Positions 3,097 through 25,282 of a stretch of 31,258 bases of DNA are shown piece after piece; position 1 is the stretch's first letter, and the number at the start of each line of letters is the position of its first letter. The translations under genes were made by a program, and so were the position numbers. The notes below the pieces were generated by a model that made no database searches, was not told where the DNA came from, and worked only from the letters and a program-made list of their open reading frames with translations. Source of the DNA: a virus (Duplodnaviria; Heunggongvirae; Uroviricota; Caudoviricetes); IMG/VR virus record IMGVR_UViG_2718217862_000002. One strand, given 5' to 3'.

Positions 3097-5544
3097 TTAA
3101 CCGTCATGCATCATGCTGGCACGGGCGCGCGCACGTTTATCCCGCTCGTATTTTTCGAGCGCATCCTGTAACTGGCGGTCGAGCTGAGTCCCCGGCGCAG
3201 TACCGCCCGTCAGACTGATGTGATATTCGTTTTTACTCTGGTCCACATAAGAGCGGCCAGCCGGTGCCGTAACCGGCTGATAAGCCTGATAGCCTGCATA
3301 AGAGCTGGTCGCCGGAATATAACCACCGGTGCCATACGTGGCGGCATGAGTTCTGGCGGCGGTCTGGTCAAGTGTGTCTGACTCTTTGTTGATAACACCG
3401 AGTTTTTCCAGTACCCAGTCAATACCACTGCGCAGTTTGTTGAACGCATTAAGCGGCAGCATCAACGCGTCAGCCAGTGCCTGCCCGAACATGACGCCCG
3501 TGTCACGGCAACGGTTCAGGGTGTCCTGGGTGGCTTTAACCGGGGCGATCAGGTTTTTAAACCACTGCCACGCGGCCTGTAACTTTTCGCCCAACCAGTC
3601 AAACACCGGCTTAAGTGGCGTGAACAGTTCCCCCACCGGCGCAAATGCCGCTTTCAGCCCTTCCACCACACCGCCAAAGAATGCGCTGACAGGCTCCCAG
3701 TATTTACGGATAAGCAACGCCCCGGCGACAATGGCGGCCACCACGGCCATAACCGGCCAGCTAATCGCTCCGATGGCGGTCATAACAGCACTGCCAACCG
3801 TCGTGAAGATTGCCCCCATTGCGCCTGCTGCCGCGATGATGGCATTGATGCCGGTGATAACCGGCCAGGCTACGAGGCCAATGGCACCGATGACACCAAT
3901 CAGTGCCAGTGCACCACCGACAATGATGCCGATGGTTGACGCCAGTGATTTGTTTTTCTGGATCCAGCCGTCGAGTTTTAACACATACTTTGTGGCCGTC
4001 TGCGTGAGCTTACGCAGTGCGCCTTCCTGCTGGTCAAACAGGTCAGTCCCCACCGCCTCATAAGCGGACTGAAACTCTTTAAAGTCACCGCCGAGGTTGT
4101 CCTGCATGATATTTAGCAGCTCGGCGGTCTTCCCGTCTGAGGCTTTAAACGCAGCGGTCAGTTTGTCCAGCTTTCCGGTTGAGGCGGCAGTCATCAGCAC
4201 GGCGGCGGCTGAGCTGGCCTCCTCCCCGAAAATGGTTTTCATGTATTCAGCCTGCTGGGCAGTACCGAGCCGGTTTTTCTCAAAACTGGCCTGCATTTCT
4301 TTCAGAATGGTAAATACTGGTCGGGTATTCCCCTTACTGTCTGAGGTTTTTACGCCAAGCTCTTTCAGTGCATCCCATGCTTTTCCCGTCGGTGCCTGCA
4401 GACGGCTTAACACGGCACGGCTTCCCGTCCCCGCCATTGAACCGGTAATTTTTGCATCATGCAGCGCCCCGACCATTGCGGCGGTTTCTTCAATGCTGAC
4501 ACCGGCATTTTTTGCCACAGGTGCGGCATAGGTCAGCGCATCGCTCATACCGTCAAAATCGGCGGCGGTTTTGTTCATCGTCATGGAGAGAACATCCCCG
4601 ATATGAGCGACCTTATCGTTTGAAAGCTGAAAGGCGGATTTCATCCCCATCAGCAGGGCGGCGTTTTCTTCCATCGTGCGGCGGTTCGCCAGCGCCATAT
4701 TCAGCGTGACCGGCGTTGCCGCCTGAATGGCATCAACATCCCCACCCGCTTTCGCGATGATTATCTGTGCACCGGCCGCATCATCCGCCGAGGCGGCGGT
4801 ATTGTCGCCGAGCTGGCGCGCCTGTTTGCGTAGTGCGGTCATTTCGGCGGAGTCTTTTGCCACTCCGAGCACGGCCTGCAATTCTGAGTTTTTCTGCGCA
4901 AACTCATAACCGGGCATCAGCAGCTTAACTCCGGCCATCGTTCCCGCCGCCGCAATCCCCACACCGGCAGCGCCCACCGAGGCCATATTTCCGACCAGTT
5001 CCTTTCCGGCCTGATAACGCTGTTTGACTGCGTTAAGTTTTGCCTGTTGCGCACTGACACGCGCCAGCGCGTCGCGCTGACGGTTAAGCTGTGCGGTGGT
5101 TTCACTGATACGGTTTTTCAGTCCCTGCTCATCATGTGCAAGATTGCGGGTATTAATTCCCACAGCGGCCAGTTCCCGCTGCTGGCGTTTAACGGAATCC
5201 GTCAGGCGGTTATATTTCGCCTGTAAGTCCTCCGCCGCACGCTTTGCGGATTCCAGCACTTTCGCCTGAGCACGGGTCGGACGTTCGGTGTTTTTAAACT
5301 GTGTGGCAAGGGCTTCGGCTTCCTGCCGAGCCTTTTCAAGTGCATGACCAGTCACGGCGAGCTGTGCACTGGTCTTGCGAAATCCCTCAATACGGGATGC
5401 CTGACCGTTCAGCTCGCGCAGTGATTTTTGTGTTTCCCGGATATCCCCCGACAGCGATTTGCTCGCTGTGCGGATGGATTTAAACGGGCGGGATGCCTGG
5501 TCAACAGCCCTGAGCAATACCTGTAATTTTACATTGTTACTCAT
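3097..5544 (-). CDS. T: Tail tape-measure protein gpT, 815 aa
   Basis: Long Ala/Gln-rich coiled-coil N-terminus and central hydrophobic Gly/Ala-rich segment typical of tape-measure proteins; size and position match P2 gpT. Confidence 0.9.
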   Translation of the reverse strand: MSNNVKLQVLLRAVDQASRPFKSIRTASKSLSGDIRETQKSLRELNGQASRIEGFRKTSAQLAVTGHALEKARQEAEALATQFKNTERPTRAQAKVLESAKRAAEDLQAKYNRLTDSVKRQQRELAAVGINTRNLAHDEQGLKNRISETTAQLNRQRDALARVSAQQAKLNAVKQRYQAGKELVGNMASVGAAGVGIAAAGTMAGVKLLMPGYEFAQKNSELQAVLGVAKDSAEMTALRKQARQLGDNTAASADDAAGAQIIIAKAGGDVDAIQAATPVTLNMALANRRTMEENAALLMGMKSAFQLSNDKVAHIGDVLSMTMNKTAADFDGMSDALTYAAPVAKNAGVSIEETAAMVGALHDAKITGSMAGTGSRAVLSRLQAPTGKAWDALKELGVKTSDSKGNTRPVFTILKEMQASFEKNRLGTAQQAEYMKTIFGEEASSAAAVLMTAASTGKLDKLTAAFKASDGKTAELLNIMQDNLGGDFKEFQSAYEAVGTDLFDQQEGALRKLTQTATKYVLKLDGWIQKNKSLASTIGIIVGGALALIGVIGAIGLVAWPVITGINAIIAAAGAMGAIFTTVGSAVMTAIGAISWPVMAVVAAIVAGALLIRKYWEPVSAFFGGVVEGLKAAFAPVGELFTPLKPVFDWLGEKLQAAWQWFKNLIAPVKATQDTLNRCRDTGVMFGQALADALMLPLNAFNKLRSGIDWVLEKLGVINKESDTLDQTAARTHAATYGTGGYIPATSSYAGYQAYQPVTAPAGRSYVDQSKNEYHISLTGGTAPGTQLDRQLQDALEKYERDKRARARASMMHDG

Positions 5545-6551: not shown

Positions 6552-7742
6552 TTAATTGCTGTTAACCGAGGTGACCAGATTTGCCAGGTATTTATCGGTA
6601 ATACGCTGGCGCAGGGTCAGGTTTTCAAGAGGAGGCACCGGGGTATAGTCGTAGTCGATATACAGTTTTCCGGCCTTGAGGGTTTCCGCATCGTTGGATT
6701 CTTCGCTGAACCAGCAGGTCGCATCCACGATATAGCCGTTTGTTTTCAGCTCACGGAATTTGGCATTGATGCCGTCAACGATGTCGCGAATCAGCGTTGC
6801 GGTGATGGGCTTGTCCACCGCCCACATGTGCGCCTCAGCCATCGTGTCGGCCAGCACCTGCGCGGTGCGGGTGTAGTTTTCAAAGAGGAACAGCGGGTCA
6901 TCGGAGCAGGTACGGTTACCCCAGAAGCGGAAACCGTCGCGGCGAATCAGCGTAGTGACGCCTGACTCGTTAAGCAGGTCAGCATCGGTGCCGGACTCCT
7001 GCAAATCCCAGAAGACGGATGCGCTGATGCCGGTAACACCGTTCACCCCGACATTGGACAGCGTTTTATGCCAGCCCTGCTCCTGGTCGATTTTAGCGCG
7101 CAGACCCAGCGCACGGGCGGTGGCATACGCGGTGGCGGTGGTACTGGTGACCGTATCCCATGCGAGGAAATCCGGCCAGATGACCATCAGCTCACGCTGG
7201 CTGAAATTCTGGCGGTAGGCTTTCACCTCGGAAATGGTTTTACAGCCCCATGCGCTGATATACCCGAAAGCGCGCAGCTTCTGACAGACTGATGCCAGTG
7301 CAACAGCCACCTCTTTGGTGTCCAGTCCCGGCACACCAAGAATACGCGGTTTAACACCGGTTACCGACTCCGCCGCCAGCAGGGCTTTCAGTCCGGTGTA
7401 CTGACCGTTTTCGTCGGTGGTGCCGATGATATTGGAAACGGTCTGCGCGAGTTTCGTTTCTTCGTCGTCGCCGGTGCCGTCTTCCACACGCACGACAACG
7501 GTGACCGGTTTTGACTGGTCAGCGATGGCCTGCAACGATGCTGCCAGCGTGCCTTTTTTACCGGCCTTTGCAATTGCGCTCTGCACATTGGTAATCAGCA
7601 CAGGTTTATTGAGGGGGAAGGTTTCCGCATCCGCATCGCTGGCCGTGCAGACCATGCCGACAATGGCAGTGGATACGGTGGAAATGACACGGGTGCCGTC
7701 GTTAATCTCCAGCACCTGCACGCCGTGATGATAGTCACTCAT
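6552..7742 (-). CDS. FI: Contractile tail sheath protein gpFI, 396 aa
   Basis: MSDYHHGVQVLEINDGTRVISTVSTAIVGMVCTASDADAETFPLNKPVLITN... recognised as P2-type sheath; size matches. Confidence 0.9.
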   Translation of the reverse strand: MSDYHHGVQVLEINDGTRVISTVSTAIVGMVCTASDADAETFPLNKPVLITNVQSAIAKAGKKGTLAASLQAIADQSKPVTVVVRVEDGTGDDEETKLAQTVSNIIGTTDENGQYTGLKALLAAESVTGVKPRILGVPGLDTKEVAVALASVCQKLRAFGYISAWGCKTISEVKAYRQNFSQRELMVIWPDFLAWDTVTSTTATAYATARALGLRAKIDQEQGWHKTLSNVGVNGVTGISASVFWDLQESGTDADLLNESGVTTLIRRDGFRFWGNRTCSDDPLFLFENYTRTAQVLADTMAEAHMWAVDKPITATLIRDIVDGINAKFRELKTNGYIVDATCWFSEESNDAETLKAGKLYIDYDYTPVPPLENLTLRQRITDKYLANLVTSVNSN

Positions 7743-7801
7743 CCGTTTAACTCCGTGGTTAATGGGTGAGTGATATTTTCTGTTGTGCCGGAGATGTCAG
7801 G

Positions 7802-7984
7802 CTATTTGTCCCGGTTGGCTAAGGGATGACACAATTTATTCTTTGTCGCTGATGAGGGGAATTTTTTATAGAGCGTGGACAGGCCAATATCAAAAATCAG
7901 CTCACATCCTGCGCACTCCAGCGCGTTACGCTGCAATTCCGTATTCTGGTCATTTGTTGACACGCGGACATAGCCAATAAGCAT
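7802..7984 (-). pseudogene. Serine DNA invertase (Gin/Hin/Pin/Cin family) remnant with an in-frame internal deletion; 60 aa instead of about 190
   Basis: MLIGYVRVSTNDQNTELQRNALECAGCELIF is the conserved invertase N-terminus with the catalytic Ser in VRVSTNDQ; it is joined directly to DIGLSTLYKKFPSS, which matches the extreme C-terminal HTH end of Gin/Pin. The catalytic domain core of about 130 aa is missing. Confidence 0.7.
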
Positions 7985-8011: not shown

Positions 8012-8521
8012 ATGATGCCAGTTAGCCGTAATCTCTGCATTTTCTTAAACGTTGGTTTGGGAGAAACGATAAATAAAGCCTCCGGAGCTATGCAGAAATC
8101 GGCTAATGGAGCTGATATTTCTGATGTATCAGCCTTCCGAAATGCGCTCCAGTTAGGGACCGCCGCAACACGAGATGTTGGAGCAGATAATGCCTCGAAG
8201 TTACTGGATTTAGACAGCTTCAGGTCAATGATGTCAGGGAATGGCTACATCTACATTCCATGCATTGCGACGACAGGAAACCCGGTGAAACTTATGTTGC
8301 AGTGGGGAACGGTGGCAACACAAAAGGGAGCTGATGCTGGATATGCCTTACCATTTGCTTTTCCCTATGCAGGCTTATTTGCGACCGGAAACCGTGGAAC
8401 ATCTGGCTACAATGCCGCGATGAATGTGCGTATTGCCAGCAGAACGCATATCAGTATTCAGAACTGGTCGCCATCCGGAGAGGGCACCGAAGATTGTTGT
8501 TTTATCGCGCTGGGGTATTAA
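8012..8521 (+). CDS. Alternate tail-fibre C-terminal (receptor-binding, Sv'-like) cassette lacking an N-terminal constant region; probably not expressed as a fibre in this orientation
   Basis: C-terminal part is homologous to the C-terminus of H on the opposite strand (shared GY.Y.P ... LQWG ... ALG[IY]-stop); followed by a tfa gene; begins at the hix-like site. Confidence 0.55.
   Translation: MMPVSRNLCIFLNVGLGETINKASGAMQKSANGADISDVSAFRNALQLGTAATRDVGADNASKLLDLDSFRSMMSGNGYIYIPCIATTGNPVKLMLQWGTVATQKGADAGYALPFAFPYAGLFATGNRGTSGYNAAMNVRIASRTHISIQNWSPSGEGTEDCCFIALGY
8042..8065. promoter_or_regulatory. hix/gix-like recombination-site remnant (TTCTTAAACGTTGGTTTGGGAGAA)
   Basis: Resembles the Hin/Gin crossover consensus (TTCTTGAAAACC..GGTTTTTGATAA-like half-sites) but with a shortened centre; sits exactly where the alternate fibre cassette begins, next to the invertase remnant. 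Confidence 0.35.
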
Positions 8522-8523
8522 GA

Positions 8524-8934
8524 ATGAATAAATTTTATAAAGGCTCTTTCTATCCGAAAGCACTAAAAGAGGTATATATCAGCGCCGGTTCATGGCCTGA
8601 AAATGGCGTTGATGTTGATGATGAAACAATGGCAATTTACACAGGCGTAGCGCCACAAGGCAAAACGCTGGGGGCTGATAAAAATGGTAATCCTGCGTGG
8701 ATTGATATCCCGCCACTCTCCGCTGAACAACAGATTATTCAGGCTGAACAGAAAAGAACGGTATTGCGTTCTATGGCTGATAAGGAAATAGTCTGGAGAC
8801 AGGATGCTTTTGATGCGGAAATCGCGACGGCAGAAGAAACCGCCGCGTTATCTGAATGGAAAAAATACCGGGTGCTGCTGATGCGCGTTGATACCTCAAA
8901 AGCCCCCGATATTCTGTGGCCTCCGCAACCGTAA
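8524..8934 (+). CDS. Tail-fibre assembly protein (Tfa / P2 gpG family), 136 aa
   Basis: C-terminus EWKKYRVLLMRVDTSKAPDILWPPQP matches the conserved Tfa C-terminal motif (lambda Tfa / P2 G type, WRQYRVLLNRVDTSTAPD.WP); ATG at 8524 three nt after the cassette stop. Confidence 0.7.
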   Translation: MNKFYKGSFYPKALKEVYISAGSWPENGVDVDDETMAIYTGVAPQGKTLGADKNGNPAWIDIPPLSAEQQIIQAEQKRTVLRSMADKEIVWRQDAFDAEIATAEETAALSEWKKYRVLLMRVDTSKAPDILWPPQP

Positions 8935-8961
8935 CAAAAAGCCGCTGTTTGCGGCTTTCTC

Positions 8962-10074
8962 TTATATCCCCAGCGCAAGATAGGTGTAGCTGTCAATATT
9001 GTTTGCCGTACCGTTTCCACTCCAGCCATAGAGACTAAACCCGGTCTGCGTGTAATTAACAGATGTTACATACCGATGGTCAGCTGTGATTTTATGCGGA
9101 AGAACGATAAATGGGGTGACATTAAACGGTTTTTTAAAGCTTACCGTAGCATTGGTCGCCTGAACCGAGCCGTGCCCCCATTGCAGCAGCAATCCTCCCG
9201 GTAATTCAAAGTACCCATCAGCCTCCAGTAACCGTTCTCCAAATCCAAGGTATGCGAGAAGACCAGCTACATCCTTTCCACTCAAATGAGTCAGCGTCTC
9301 ATCCAGTGGCTGCTTACCTGACAGCGCATTGTTAATGGTGGTACTGAATTTCGGGTCATTGTTAATGGCTGCGGCAATTTCTTTCAGTGTGTCCAGCGTG
9401 GCTGGCGCACCGTTAATCAGAGCGGTAATAGCGGCCTGAACAAACGCAGTGGTCGCAATCCGCGTGGTGTTATTTCCTGCGGCAGGCGTCGGCGCTTTTG
9501 GTTCTCCGGTAAATGTCGGATTATGTTTCTGCGCATACTGGGTATGAGGATCCTGTGCGGCAATGTGGTTTCTCATCTGGTCATCCACATACAGCCTTAA
9601 TTCCAGGACTTCATCATCCACGTATTTACGGGTCGCCAGTACCACCGACGGGTCGATTTTCAGCGTGATAGCTTCGGTATTCGTGACAACCAGAATCATG
9701 CGGATAGTCTGGGTACGACCACTGCCTTCCTGCAACTGCGGTTTGTACGTTTCCGGGCAGTTCGCCACCGCAATGAGTACGCCTTCATCATCATAAAGCC
9801 CAATCTCACGGATCCAGAATCCGCCCTCGTTCTCAGGGATGATTTGCTCCGCAATAATCTGGCTCTGGTTGTTCGGGTCAACACTCAGAAGATTCAGCGG
9901 CGCGATGCGTTTCTGGTTAATCAGTTTTGTCTGTGCCGGGTCTGGTGTCGGCAAGACACCATTCGCATCACCAACGGCCATTTGCGTCAGATTCAGCTTA
10001 CTGCCGAGCATCGTCGCGTTAGCCAGCCGTGCTGCGCCCTGATTAGTCAGAATGGCGTAGTATTTCACTGTCAT
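8962..10074 (-). CDS. H: Tail fibre protein gpH, 370 aa (P2 H-like N-terminus, divergent shorter C-terminal region)
   Basis: N-terminus MTVKYYAILTNQGAARLANATMLGSKLNLTQMAVGDANG...GGFWIREIGLYDDEGVLIAVANCPETYKP recognisably P2 H-like; position between I and the tail-fibre accessory region. Confidence 0.85.
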   Translation of the reverse strand: MTVKYYAILTNQGAARLANATMLGSKLNLTQMAVGDANGVLPTPDPAQTKLINQKRIAPLNLLSVDPNNQSQIIAEQIIPENEGGFWIREIGLYDDEGVLIAVANCPETYKPQLQEGSGRTQTIRMILVVTNTEAITLKIDPSVVLATRKYVDDEVLELRLYVDDQMRNHIAAQDPHTQYAQKHNPTFTGEPKAPTPAAGNNTTRIATTAFVQAAITALINGAPATLDTLKEIAAAINNDPKFSTTINNALSGKQPLDETLTHLSGKDVAGLLAYLGFGERLLEADGYFELPGGLLLQWGHGSVQATNATVSFKKPFNVTPFIVLPHKITADHRYVTSVNYTQTGFSLYGWSGNGTANNIDSYTYLALGI

Positions 10075-22229: not shown

Positions 22230-23351
22230 ATGATTGCTGATTCAGAAATACTTTATGTTCCGCTAGATGATTTGGAACTTGACACAGAAAACCCAAGACT
22301 TCCTGAAGGCGTGTCTCGTGACCAATTGGGAATGATTAACTACATAGCAACCTCAACATCTATCGAAGACCTAATGAGTGCTATTGCGGAAAATGGTTTT
22401 TTCCCTGGAGAACCATTGATTGTCATTCCTGATAGTGGAGCGCCGGGGAAGTACATTGTAGTTGAAGGAAACCGTCGCCTATCCGCGGTCAAATTATTAC
22501 GCGATCCGACACTATGTGAAAATCCAAGTGCTCGACTACGAGAAATTGCATCAAATGCAAAACATACGGTCGATCGTGTTCCTGTCATTGAGCGCCAAAC
22601 AAGAGAAGAGATTCTTCCGTACCTTGGTTTCAGACATATTACTGGTGTCAAACAATGGGAACCCTTATCAAAAGCTCGATATATTAAACAGCTTTTTGAT
22701 TATACCAATGCAAATCTGGATCCAATGCTACGCTACTATGAGGTTGCCAGAGCTATTGGCAGTCGTAGGGATCATATCAAGCGTAACCTAGACGCTTTAG
22801 CGGTGTATGAAATCATTAAAAAAAATGATTTTTATGGTATTGAAAAGCTAGATGAAGAAACGATTAAATTTTCAGTATTATCAACAGCACTTGCTGATGA
22901 GCGGTTAGGCCAGTTTGTCGGAGTTTCAATCGAAGACGATGGAGACACAATACCAAGTCATCCTATCATCAATTCTAAGAGTTTAAAGAACAAAGAAATA
23001 AAAGAACTAACTGAATGGTTATATAAAAAAGGCGAGGATAAAAAAACTCGTGTAGGAGAATCACGTAATTTAAGAGAACTAGCTGCTGTTGTAAGTAGCC
23101 CTAAGGCATTGGAGCAATTCCGAATGGGGGCTCCACTCGCAGTTGCCTATCAATTGACATCTGATATTACTAAGGACTTTCTCCAGTTACTTTATCAAGT
23201 TGAAGCAGCTTTGATAGATGCAGCAGGCATGGTTGCCACGGTAGAGTATGATAGACAGGCCCATGAAGTAGCACGAAGAATCAATAAACATATTAAGCTT
23301 ATAGGTTCTGAAATAGCAGAGAAAAATAGCAGAGGTGATGATGACTTTTGA
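22230..23351 (+). CDS. ParB/Srx-like (ParB N-terminal nuclease/NTPase-fold) domain protein, about 373 aa; cargo gene 1
   Basis: N-terminal region ILYVPLDDLELDTENPRL ... LMSAIAENGFFPGEPLIVIP ... KYIVVEGNRRLSAVKLL follows the ParB-box pattern (NPR motif, then the G-x-R-R arginine motif). ATG at 22230 preceded by GGAG; the ORF-track start at 22191 is a TTG. AT-rich codon usage unlike the phage backbone. Confidence 0.7.
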   Translation: MIADSEILYVPLDDLELDTENPRLPEGVSRDQLGMINYIATSTSIEDLMSAIAENGFFPGEPLIVIPDSGAPGKYIVVEGNRRLSAVKLLRDPTLCENPSARLREIASNAKHTVDRVPVIERQTREEILPYLGFRHITGVKQWEPLSKARYIKQLFDYTNANLDPMLRYYEVARAIGSRRDHIKRNLDALAVYEIIKKNDFYGIEKLDEETIKFSVLSTALADERLGQFVGVSIEDDGDTIPSHPIINSKSLKNKEIKELTEWLYKKGEDKKTRVGESRNLRELAAVVSSPKALEQFRMGAPLAVAYQLTSDITKDFLQLLYQVEAALIDAAGMVATVEYDRQAHEVARRINKHIKLIGSEIAEKNSRGDDDF

Positions 23352-24330
23352 AGTAGGAGTTATGCATCCCAACTCTCCTCATTTGTTTGCAGATTTAGCC
23401 GAGTTACTCACGGTAATTAATTATACCGGACGTAACTCACTACATAAAAATGATTTAGATTCAGTAAGAAAATTCGGCATAACAAGCGTTGAAGAAATTG
23501 ATGAAGAATGTAATTCTGAAGAAGAAATTAATGGAGACGCTGAGAGAAATGATCGTTTTGAAGAGCAACTCGAAGATGTTTGGACACAACTCGAATATAG
23601 AGAAAGTGCTCTTGGCAAAATATATCCATTTATAATTTCAGGTGATGAGATAATTATTAAAGAAAATCTAAACCAACAACAACGAATATATGTTTTTCTT
23701 CTTTGCTGCTCTAGACTTAGATCCTTTAAGTCGATTAAAGGAGCAGCACAACGTTGGGCAAAGAGCTTTGCCAGAGTATGTAAAGTAGCAATGATTTCTC
23801 TCTTACCTGCACATGGCACCGTAAGAATTTTTGATGCTAACTCCGATGATAGGCAAAATTATTATGGAACAAATCTTCGGACAGCTCTACAAACTTTAGG
23901 AAAAGATCTTGGAGTTTGTAGTTTAAACACAAGGGAAATAAATAGAGCTCCCACATCTGGTGATGCCGGGTTTGACCTAATTGCTACAGTGGAATTTCCT
24001 GATGGTCAAACTAGCAACTATGGAATTCTTGGTCAATGTGGTGCACAAGAAACAGGGTGGCCAAGCAAAACATTAGAGGCTAACGTGTTAAAACTGACCA
24101 CCTATTTCCAAATTGCGTTCCAGCATCCATCAACAATGTTCACGCCTGTTTTCTATCGGGAAGCAAATGGCGAATGGGTAAGCACACACGCAACCGCTGG
24201 AGTATTATTATTAGATAGGTTGAGAATCATATATCTACTTGATAAGGCAAACCAATGGGAAGCGATAACTACCTCTGATTGGTTTCGCGAATTTGAGGAA
24301 GAGCTTTATACATTAAATCCAGAGCCTTAA
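23335..24330 (+). CDS. Hypothetical protein, 331 aa, no domain recognised; overlaps gene 1 by 17 nt; cargo gene 2
   Basis: Long ORF in the AT-rich island, start codons (ATGATGATG) overlapping the 3' end of gene 1; acidic stretch EEIDEECNSEEEINGDAERNDRFEEQLED near the N-terminus. Confidence 0.6.
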   Translation: MMMTFEVGVMHPNSPHLFADLAELLTVINYTGRNSLHKNDLDSVRKFGITSVEEIDEECNSEEEINGDAERNDRFEEQLEDVWTQLEYRESALGKIYPFIISGDEIIIKENLNQQQRIYVFLLCCSRLRSFKSIKGAAQRWAKSFARVCKVAMISLLPAHGTVRIFDANSDDRQNYYGTNLRTALQTLGKDLGVCSLNTREINRAPTSGDAGFDLIATVEFPDGQTSNYGILGQCGAQETGWPSKTLEANVLKLTTYFQIAFQHPSTMFTPVFYREANGEWVSTHATAGVLLLDRLRIIYLLDKANQWEAITTSDWFREFEEELYTLNPEP

Positions 24331-24337
24331 TAGCTTA

Positions 24338-25282
24338 TCAATCCCATAATTCTATTGGCAATGCCTTCGTTACAGCTTCAAAAAGCGGCGGAGGCACTGC
24401 ATTACCAACCACCGTGTATTTCATGCCAAGACTTGCAGCATTTGTTTCTGGAAACACTAGATCCTCAAACCCTTGTAATAGTGCAGCCTCTCGAAAACTG
24501 AATCTGCGAGCTCTCCGATCCTCAACAAATCTCCATTCATCAGTTCTTACTTTCTCCATCGGAGGACTGACAGGATGCAACGGCATATGCCTTGCATTAG
24601 CAACTATTGTCTTTGAAATTTGATCCCAATCCTGGCGACGATTGCGAGACATATAATACCAATGGAATCCCATATCATAAAATTCACCTTCTGGCCATTC
24701 AGGTAAATGCCCTATAGCATCTTTAATAGTAACATAGTTGACGCCAGTTGCTGGCCCATGAGTTGGCTGAGGGAACTCGTACTTAACTTTGAAATCATTA
24801 CGGATTCCTACGATAAATATTCTTTTTCTTTCCTGCGCTACTCCATATTCAGCCGCATTTAAAACTTTTGCGGAAACAGTATAACCTGCTTCAGTAAAAA
24901 CCCTGATCTGGTCAGATAACAAATGCTCAAAATTTTTTCTAACCATACCAGACACGTTTTCTACTATAAAAGCTTTAGGCTTTATATTGTTTAAAGCTCT
25001 AGCAAACTCTAAATAAAGAGTATTAATTTTTCGATCGGCTTTACGCGCACCACCCTGGCTGAATCCCTGACATGGATAACAACCTACCAGCAAATCAGAT
25101 TTAGGAAAAGTAGTTACATCAGCAATATTGCCTAATATGTAATCAGTTTCTGGATGATTGGCAATATAAACATCGCGCGCATACGGCAAGATATCGTTGG
25201 CCATAAGCACATCAAAGCCGGCTCTCAAAACCCCCGCATCGGAACCACCGCATCCAGAAAAAAGTGAAACTACTGTTGGCAT
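24338..25282 (-). CDS. DNA (cytosine-5)-methyltransferase, 314 aa; cargo gene 3
   Basis: Canonical m5C MTase motifs in order: FSGCGG (motif I, AdoMet binding), PCQGFS (motif IV, catalytic Cys), ENV (motif VI), QERKR (motif VIII). Convergent with gene 2, stops 8 bp apart. Confidence 0.9.
   Translation of the reverse strand: MPTVVSLFSGCGGSDAGVLRAGFDVLMANDILPYARDVYIANHPETDYILGNIADVTTFPKSDLLVGCYPCQGFSQGGARKADRKINTLYLEFARALNNIKPKAFIVENVSGMVRKNFEHLLSDQIRVFTEAGYTVSAKVLNAAEYGVAQERKRIFIVGIRNDFKVKYEFPQPTHGPATGVNYVTIKDAIGHLPEWPEGEFYDMGFHWYYMSRNRRQDWDQISKTIVANARHMPLHPVSPPMEKVRTDEWRFVEDRRARRFSFREAALLQGFEDLVFPETNAASLGMKYTVVGNAVPPPLFEAVTKALPIELWD

Follow-up and report, generated by a model that had tools for sequence, protein, structure and literature searches.

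The invertase gene of a tail-fibre switch in this P2-like prophage has been reduced by an internal deletion to a remnant of 60 codons, and the switch is probably an orphan whose cassette is flipped occasionally by a Din-family invertase acting in trans. The window, that is, the whole stretch of 31,258 nucleotides that was analysed, comprises a complete P2-like prophage, located in E. coli between fieF and cpxP. According to the account that we favour, a tail-fibre inversion cassette of the Gin/Cin/Pin/Hin type, carried by a P2-like prophage, lost codons 32–168 of its invertase gene in one step, between two in-phase copies of the direct repeat GCTGATTTTTGA. The elements needed in cis are kept, namely both 26-bp crossover sites, the 5' stretch with the predicted enhancer and the pF promoter. 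Self-flipping would be impossible after this loss, and a compatible Din-family invertase from another prophage, a phage or a plasmid would flip the cassette instead. Such trans flipping would have taken place at least twice since the deletion in one E. coli clone. Within this account, we infer the function of the enhancer and the identity of the trans-acting enzyme as a Din invertase.

The window matches the prophage of strain Y5 base for base over the part that was compared, and other strains are nearly identical. On the minus strand, the baseplate genes are followed by the tail-fibre gene H, a block of 1.2 kb, the 60-aa ORF, the sheath gene (6552–7742) and the rest of the tail operon. The 1.2-kb block between H and the remnant encodes a second fibre tip and a chaperone on the plus strand. 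Elsewhere in the window, between the portal and replication genes (22230–25282), one gene matches PD-Lambda-5_A of PADLOC (E = 6e-29). It is adjoined by an overlapping ORF of 329 aa, which has no Pfam or PADLOC match, and by a gene for a Dcm-type cytosine methylase; this region looks like anti-phage defence cargo.

The remnant ORF (7802–7984, minus strand) begins with ATG, ends with TAG and encodes 60 aa, which correspond to residues 1–31 and 169–197 of a 197-aa serine invertase of the Din family. A preliminary description of this DNA had interpreted the ORF as an invertase N-terminus fused to the C-terminal helix-turn-helix end of the same protein, and both halves of that interpretation are borne out. 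In phmmer searches of PDB chains, residues 1–37 of the remnant aligned with residues 1–37 of Gin (domain E = 4e-13), and residues 26–51 corresponded to the end of the DNA-binding domains of Gin (163–182) and Hin (27–51), in agreement with the intact alleles described below. With Pfam, the remnant matched only profile positions 2–42 of the 145 in the Resolvase domain (PF00239). No match to HTH_7 (PF02796) was obtained with Pfam in the 60-aa remnant, the last helix and the tail being all that is left of this domain. Arg8 and Ser10 are kept, as the Y-x-R-x-S motif is present in the form GYVRVST. What is missing comprises the Asp/Arg cluster around residues 67–71, the oligomerisation helix, everything else of the catalytic domain and all but one of the three DNA-binding helices. 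Since the catalytic core, the oligomerisation helix and most of the DNA-binding helices are gone, the 60-aa product, judged from its sequence, cannot act as a recombinase. The gene adjoining the invertible segment is this remnant, and no active invertase is encoded next to the segment. The pseudogene called by RefSeq at this place (7877–7984) comprises the N-terminal 36 codons only, and so overlooks the in-frame fusion that runs on to the original stop codon.

The history of the remnant can be read from intact alleles found at the same position in three related prophages (L002, L003 and L004). These are 594 nt long, encode 197 aa and share the stop codon of the remnant. The 197-aa protein of L002 contains both domains at full length according to Pfam (Resolvase, E = 2e-52; HTH_7, E = 1e-12). 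Relative to the intact alleles, exactly 411 bp, or 137 codons (codons 32–168), are absent from the remnant; the earlier estimate of about 130 codons was right as to an internal loss and somewhat low as to its size. The intact gene contains the 12-nt direct repeat GCTGATTTTTGA at nt 84–95 and nt 495–506 (coordinates of L002). It is the longest direct repeat of the invertase gene, and the chance expectation of a 12-mer repeat in 594 nt is 0.01. The two copies flank the 411-bp core, and a single copy has been kept at the deletion junction of the window (7890–7901, minus strand). The lost DNA is thus bracketed by repeats in the parent and exactly one copy is left, the classical pattern of replication slippage or microhomology-mediated deletion, as which the 411-bp loss is classed.

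Both copies of GCTGATTTTTGA are in phase and encode (E/A)-L-I-F-(E/D). The repeat pair exists because both spots of the protein encode Leu-Ile-Phe and an acidic residue in the same frame. As the in-phase repeat encodes L-I-F twice, recombination between its copies leaves the frame open, and selection need not be invoked; the in-frame outcome is not a mark of selection. It had been proposed beforehand that the gene had suffered a precise in-frame deletion rather than random decay, with the junction at an IF-D / IY-D repeat. The intact alleles confirm the former by showing 411 bp lost between copies of a 12-nt repeat, and the placing of the junction was essentially correct, given the residues that the repeat encodes.

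The cassette itself retains the sites at which inversion takes place. The two crossover sites are imperfect, and they were located from the boundaries of matches and by eye and then verified. The left 26-bp site (8040–8065) reads TTTTCTTAAACG-TT-GGTTTGGGAGAA, with its 2-bp core at 8052–8053. The right 26-bp site (9235–9260), located inside H, reads TTCTCCAAATCC-AA-GGTATGCGAGAA and is inverted with respect to the left one. Both are intact and share the 2-bp core. The invertible segment between them (8054–9246; 1193 bp) is reversed in 12 genomes with the same deletion allele. As oriented in the window, H (8962–10074, minus strand) encodes a fibre of 370 aa whose N-terminus is of the tail-collar type and whose C-terminal tip is Gp53-like. 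A silent alternative C-terminal tip (Gp53-like_C; 8066–8521, plus strand) is joined in frame with H by inversion, yielding a fibre of 431 aa. The gene for the tail-fibre assembly chaperone (Caudo_TAP, 136 aa; 8524–8934, plus strand) is co-oriented with H in the flipped state only.

The segment thus holds two Gp53-like tips and a single Caudo_TAP chaperone gene. In the window orientation, H ends at a hairpin (8932–8964), and there is no chaperone gene on the same strand downstream of it; fibre and chaperone come together in the flipped state only. The window orientation may, from this arrangement of genes, be a chaperone-less or defective state. A 1.2-kb invertible segment that is 97.7–99.8% identical was also found in EC7 (NZ_CP060963.1, 3706892–3708260), beside an annotated pinE and apparently in an e14-like element. 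Its position next to pinE indicates that the cassette is common to e14-type and P2-type elements.

The 5' end of the invertase gene contains a predicted Fis-dependent recombinational enhancer (7900–7961; gene nt 24–85), assigned by position and homology. Two candidate 15-bp cores are located at gene nt 24–38 (7947–7961) and gene nt 71–85 (7900–7914). They were placed with the help of the hin sequence and of the Hin enhancer described next. A distance of 47 bp separates the centres of these cores, and 98.5 bp separate the nearer core from the centre of the left crossover site. The enhancer of Hin is about 65 bp long, is located about 100 bp from hixL and contains two Fis sites whose centres are 47 bp apart (PMC3798978, PMC2724282). 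The whole enhancer-homologous stretch is on the retained side of the deletion junction, and a Fis-dependent enhancer would thus have been kept in the remnant. At the other end of the gene, the 3' end of the remnant ORF is overlapped by a P2-type pF late promoter of the sheath operon (7766–7839, minus strand; start at 7766–7768, activator site at 7811–7839), recognized by homology with P2, and the deletion leaves this promoter intact. The invertase has an unusual C-terminal tail, ATKNKLCHPLANRDK, whose coding DNA is homologous to the pF late-promoter region of P2 (window 7766–7850).

The preliminary description had expected the deletion to leave the tail-fibre switch locked. As stated, this expectation fails: the same allele, in the same prophage and at the same site, is found with the segment in either orientation. 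Both orientations, whose detection in a culture that description had named as grounds for refutation, were found at the level of the clone, that is, across genomes. Six complete E. coli genomes with the deletion allele have the window orientation across the whole cassette, and 12 further genomes have the exact inverse in a single piece, at 99.8–100% identity. The flipped configuration was detected by searching with a synthetic sequence inverted at the 2-bp core, and each of these 18 genomes gave a single-piece match to one of the two 1.75–1.8-kb configurations with at least 99.8% identity. Eight of the 18 clone loci were fetched and aligned, seven of which include chromosomal flank; all seven are at the same chromosomal site next to fieF. 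Once the segment had been set to one orientation, none of the eight aligned loci showed more than five SNPs relative to the window over 23 kb. In the assembly of GYB01 (L008), prophage genes are frameshifted by several indels, which are probably sequencing errors, and in TL-14 (L024) the alternative fibre tip lacks 3 nt, corresponding to window positions 8453–8455.

The junctions of the flipped state point to the manner of the exchange. In AR_0137, the hybrid sites are exactly the recombinants predicted for an exchange at the core. Around the core, the parental sites have TTGG (4 bp) alone in common; homologous recombination needs a longer match, and the exchange was therefore site-specific. 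Shared SNPs bear on the number of events. E-ge-1, TL-14 and P50 have a chromosomal variant in uspD/tpiA in common, and E-ge-1 and P50 share a SNP in the tape-measure gene (window position 4994). Of these three, P50 is in the window orientation and the other two are flipped, and the genomes outside this group likewise include both orientations. With both orientations occurring within each of two SNP sublineages, the alignments imply, given clonal descent, at least two inversions in the clone after the deletion. Autonomous switching is lost, and the segment is still invertible.

The deletion allele is widespread. With the remnant region alone as query, at least 24 complete E. coli genomes gave an uninterrupted match, and in a large protein collection 434 contigs have the exact 60-aa ORF. 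The identical deletion was also detected in other P2-like prophages, namely those of MNCRE44 (L018), of SRY149 (L019), SRY157 and SRY206, and of NCTC10973 (L020). The prophages of MNCRE44, SRY149 and NCTC10973 carry different segment and fibre cargo, and two of them are integrated next to pflB, not fieF. Together with the window clone, there are at least four P2-like backgrounds with the identical deletion, at two attachment sites, an indication of slippage at a hot spot or else of exchange between mosaic phages. A comparison of haplotypes, with four deletion alleles and three intact ones, had few informative sites to draw on and did not separate a single from a recurrent origin. Among sequenced phage records, none carries the deletion; the closest are pro483 and its relatives, which have an intact cassette.

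This distribution bears on the strongest of the alternatives, namely that the switch is permanently locked and that recurrent, independent deletions at the same 12-nt repeat froze it in differing orientations. A repeat pair that is in phase and the longest of its gene could be used repeatedly, the identical deletion is present in several backgrounds with different cargo and attachment sites, and many genomes of the clone have no intact chromosomal invertase core, all of which speaks for this explanation. We nevertheless regard it as unlikely. At least three to four identical events would be needed in lineages that are a few SNPs apart, with no intact survivors among the 18 genomes of the clone, yet the deletion was identified in only about 24 of the 375 database records with this locus. 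In addition, a private SNP in the flank of the remnant (alignment column 697) is common to all members of the clone, and so fits one ancestral allele. No intact allele was found on the haplotype of the clone, the best intact match having one mismatch in 304 nt and belonging to a different prophage.

If the cassette is flipped in trans, as we consider probable, a source for the enzyme has to be sought elsewhere in the cell. Din-family invertases act on one another's sites. PinQ of Qin inverts the P segment of e14 (PMC12529663), and the Fels-2 invertase is reported to contribute to inversion of the H segment of Salmonella (Kutsukake et al. 2006). Invertase-like places were counted in each genome by comparing the blastn matches of a composite query, in which the remnant region was combined with a 300-nt piece of the deleted core in the opposite sense, with those of the remnant region alone. 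By these place counts, every genome of the clone has at least one extra core-like place. The clearest candidate is AF51 (OZ547064), where a second P2-like prophage encodes an intact invertase identical to the parent at 195 of 197 residues, and where the crossover sites of that second prophage differ from the window sites by one or two bases. According to the place counts, an invertase core is also present in a second element of GYB01, AF43 and DETEC-S560, and a more divergent one in PRO_A-1370.

Six genomes have one further chromosomal core-like place only, namely Y5 and 1000, which have the window orientation, and 1000C-3, E-ge-1, ES11 and JX4-T, which are flipped. In strain 1000, the extra place is a 159-nt fragment of a pinH-like pseudogene (L017, 19375–19533), located between the ileY/ypjC-side genes and ypjA and 80% identical to the deleted core over 134 nt; a place count is thus no proof of an intact paralogue. 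Three prophages that might have supplied an invertase are absent from strain 1000: e14 (icd abuts iraM), Rac (uspF abuts ttcA) and Qin (ydfJ is intact). One plasmid of strain 1000 and one of E-ge-1 were inspected over their first 50 kb; no Din invertase was found there, and these plasmid stretches encode one distant resolvase-type protein (36% identity over 69 aa). The association between a second invertase and orientation was not significant (3/5 vs 2/11; Fisher p = 0.24). In the lineages of Y5, 1000, 1000C-3, E-ge-1, ES11 and JX4-T, the enzyme would need to have been present only transiently, to be encoded on a plasmid or to be too divergent to be matched by blastn. Flipping is probably rare and episodic, and the word 'locked' is fair, in a weak sense, for the present state of some strains.

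A further reading takes the remnant to reflect more than decay, the choice of fibre being set by a co-resident element that bears an invertase. In its radical variant, an unrecognised or highly divergent recombinase inverts the segment in those lineages that have no detectable Din invertase. We hold this to be distinctly unlikely. If true, host-range switching would be coupled to polylysogeny or superinfection.

A route without site-specific inversion would be homologous recombination, or gene conversion, in which a copy of the cassette elsewhere, for example in an e14-like element or in a second P2-like prophage, supplied the segment the other way round. Potential partners exist, as the e14-like element of EC7 has the same 1.2-kb segment beside pinE and some members of the clone have a second P2-like prophage. 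However, the back-flipped segment and both of its flanks are base-identical, with no imported SNPs and no restored invertase, and the breakpoints fall within 4 bp at the centre of the 26-bp sites. The second prophage of AF51 has different segment cargo and strain 1000 is without e14. We consider this route very unlikely. Even less probable is that the 60-aa product is a functional small protein, a modulator of invertases or of crossover sites, and that the allele is under selection. Its frame, start codon and upstream region are intact and the exact ORF recurs on hundreds of contigs, but the in-phase repeat forces an in-frame result, the dimer interface and most of the helix-turn-helix are missing, and clonal inheritance of the prophage accounts for the spread. 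Finally, although the GYB01 assembly is rich in indel errors, the chance that an error of sequencing or assembly produced the deletion or the orientation is negligible, because the identical junction recurs in at least 24 independent complete genomes as well as in the 434 contigs, and because the inverted repeats are only 26 bp long and are spanned by reads.

Loss of the invertase gene followed by occasional flipping in trans thus remains the reading that we prefer, and it carries a caution: an invertible segment is not necessarily fixed when the invertase gene beside it is dead. As the orientation can be changed by enzymes encoded elsewhere, the fibre that is displayed can depend on which other elements reside in the same cell. 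The allele is common, being present on hundreds of contigs, and offers a natural set of strains for testing the reach of Din invertases across elements.

A close functional comparison is with the switches of the Din family (Gin of Mu, Cin of P1, Pin of e14 and Hin of Salmonella). The parent of the remnant is likewise a protein of 197 aa with Resolvase and HTH_7 domains, and the N-terminus of Gin is nearly identical to that of this parent. These switches have, like the window, two inverted 26-bp sites with a 2-bp core, alternative fibre C-termini and a chaperone gene. They also have an enhancer inside the 5' end of the invertase gene, which is probable in the window. In contrast to them, the enzyme gene of the window is internally deleted, leaving the cassette non-autonomous, and the window segment has two Gp53-like tips with one chaperone gene. 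In early work on P1 and Mu, hin-defective Salmonella was reportedly rescued by either phage. The pairs formed by PinQ and e14 and by the Fin invertase of Fels-2 and Salmonella resemble the window in that a switch without an active enzyme of its own is served by a related invertase elsewhere in the cell. They differ in that trans action in the window is deduced from population genomics, with several genomes in which no resident donor was found.

By gene order, the nearest relatives are phage pro483, the 'P2' prophage of O157:H43 strain T22 and phage S164, in which the cassette is likewise located between the fibre genes and FI. They are about 96–97% identical to the window across the start of the sheath gene, the ends of the invertase gene and the intergenic region, whereas the 411-bp core is kept in those phages. 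P2 itself has no invertase. The same genomes also contain a second decayed gene of a Din-family invertase, the pinH fragment; however, this is an internal piece of 159 nt that has neither ends nor sites, whereas the remnant of the window keeps the ends of the gene together with the cis sites. All the components of this system are of well-known kinds, namely decayed prophage invertases, slippage deletions and Din invertases that act in trans. The evidence from the population for inversion after the deletion is the sole mildly surprising element, and the current understanding of Din switch systems is unchanged.
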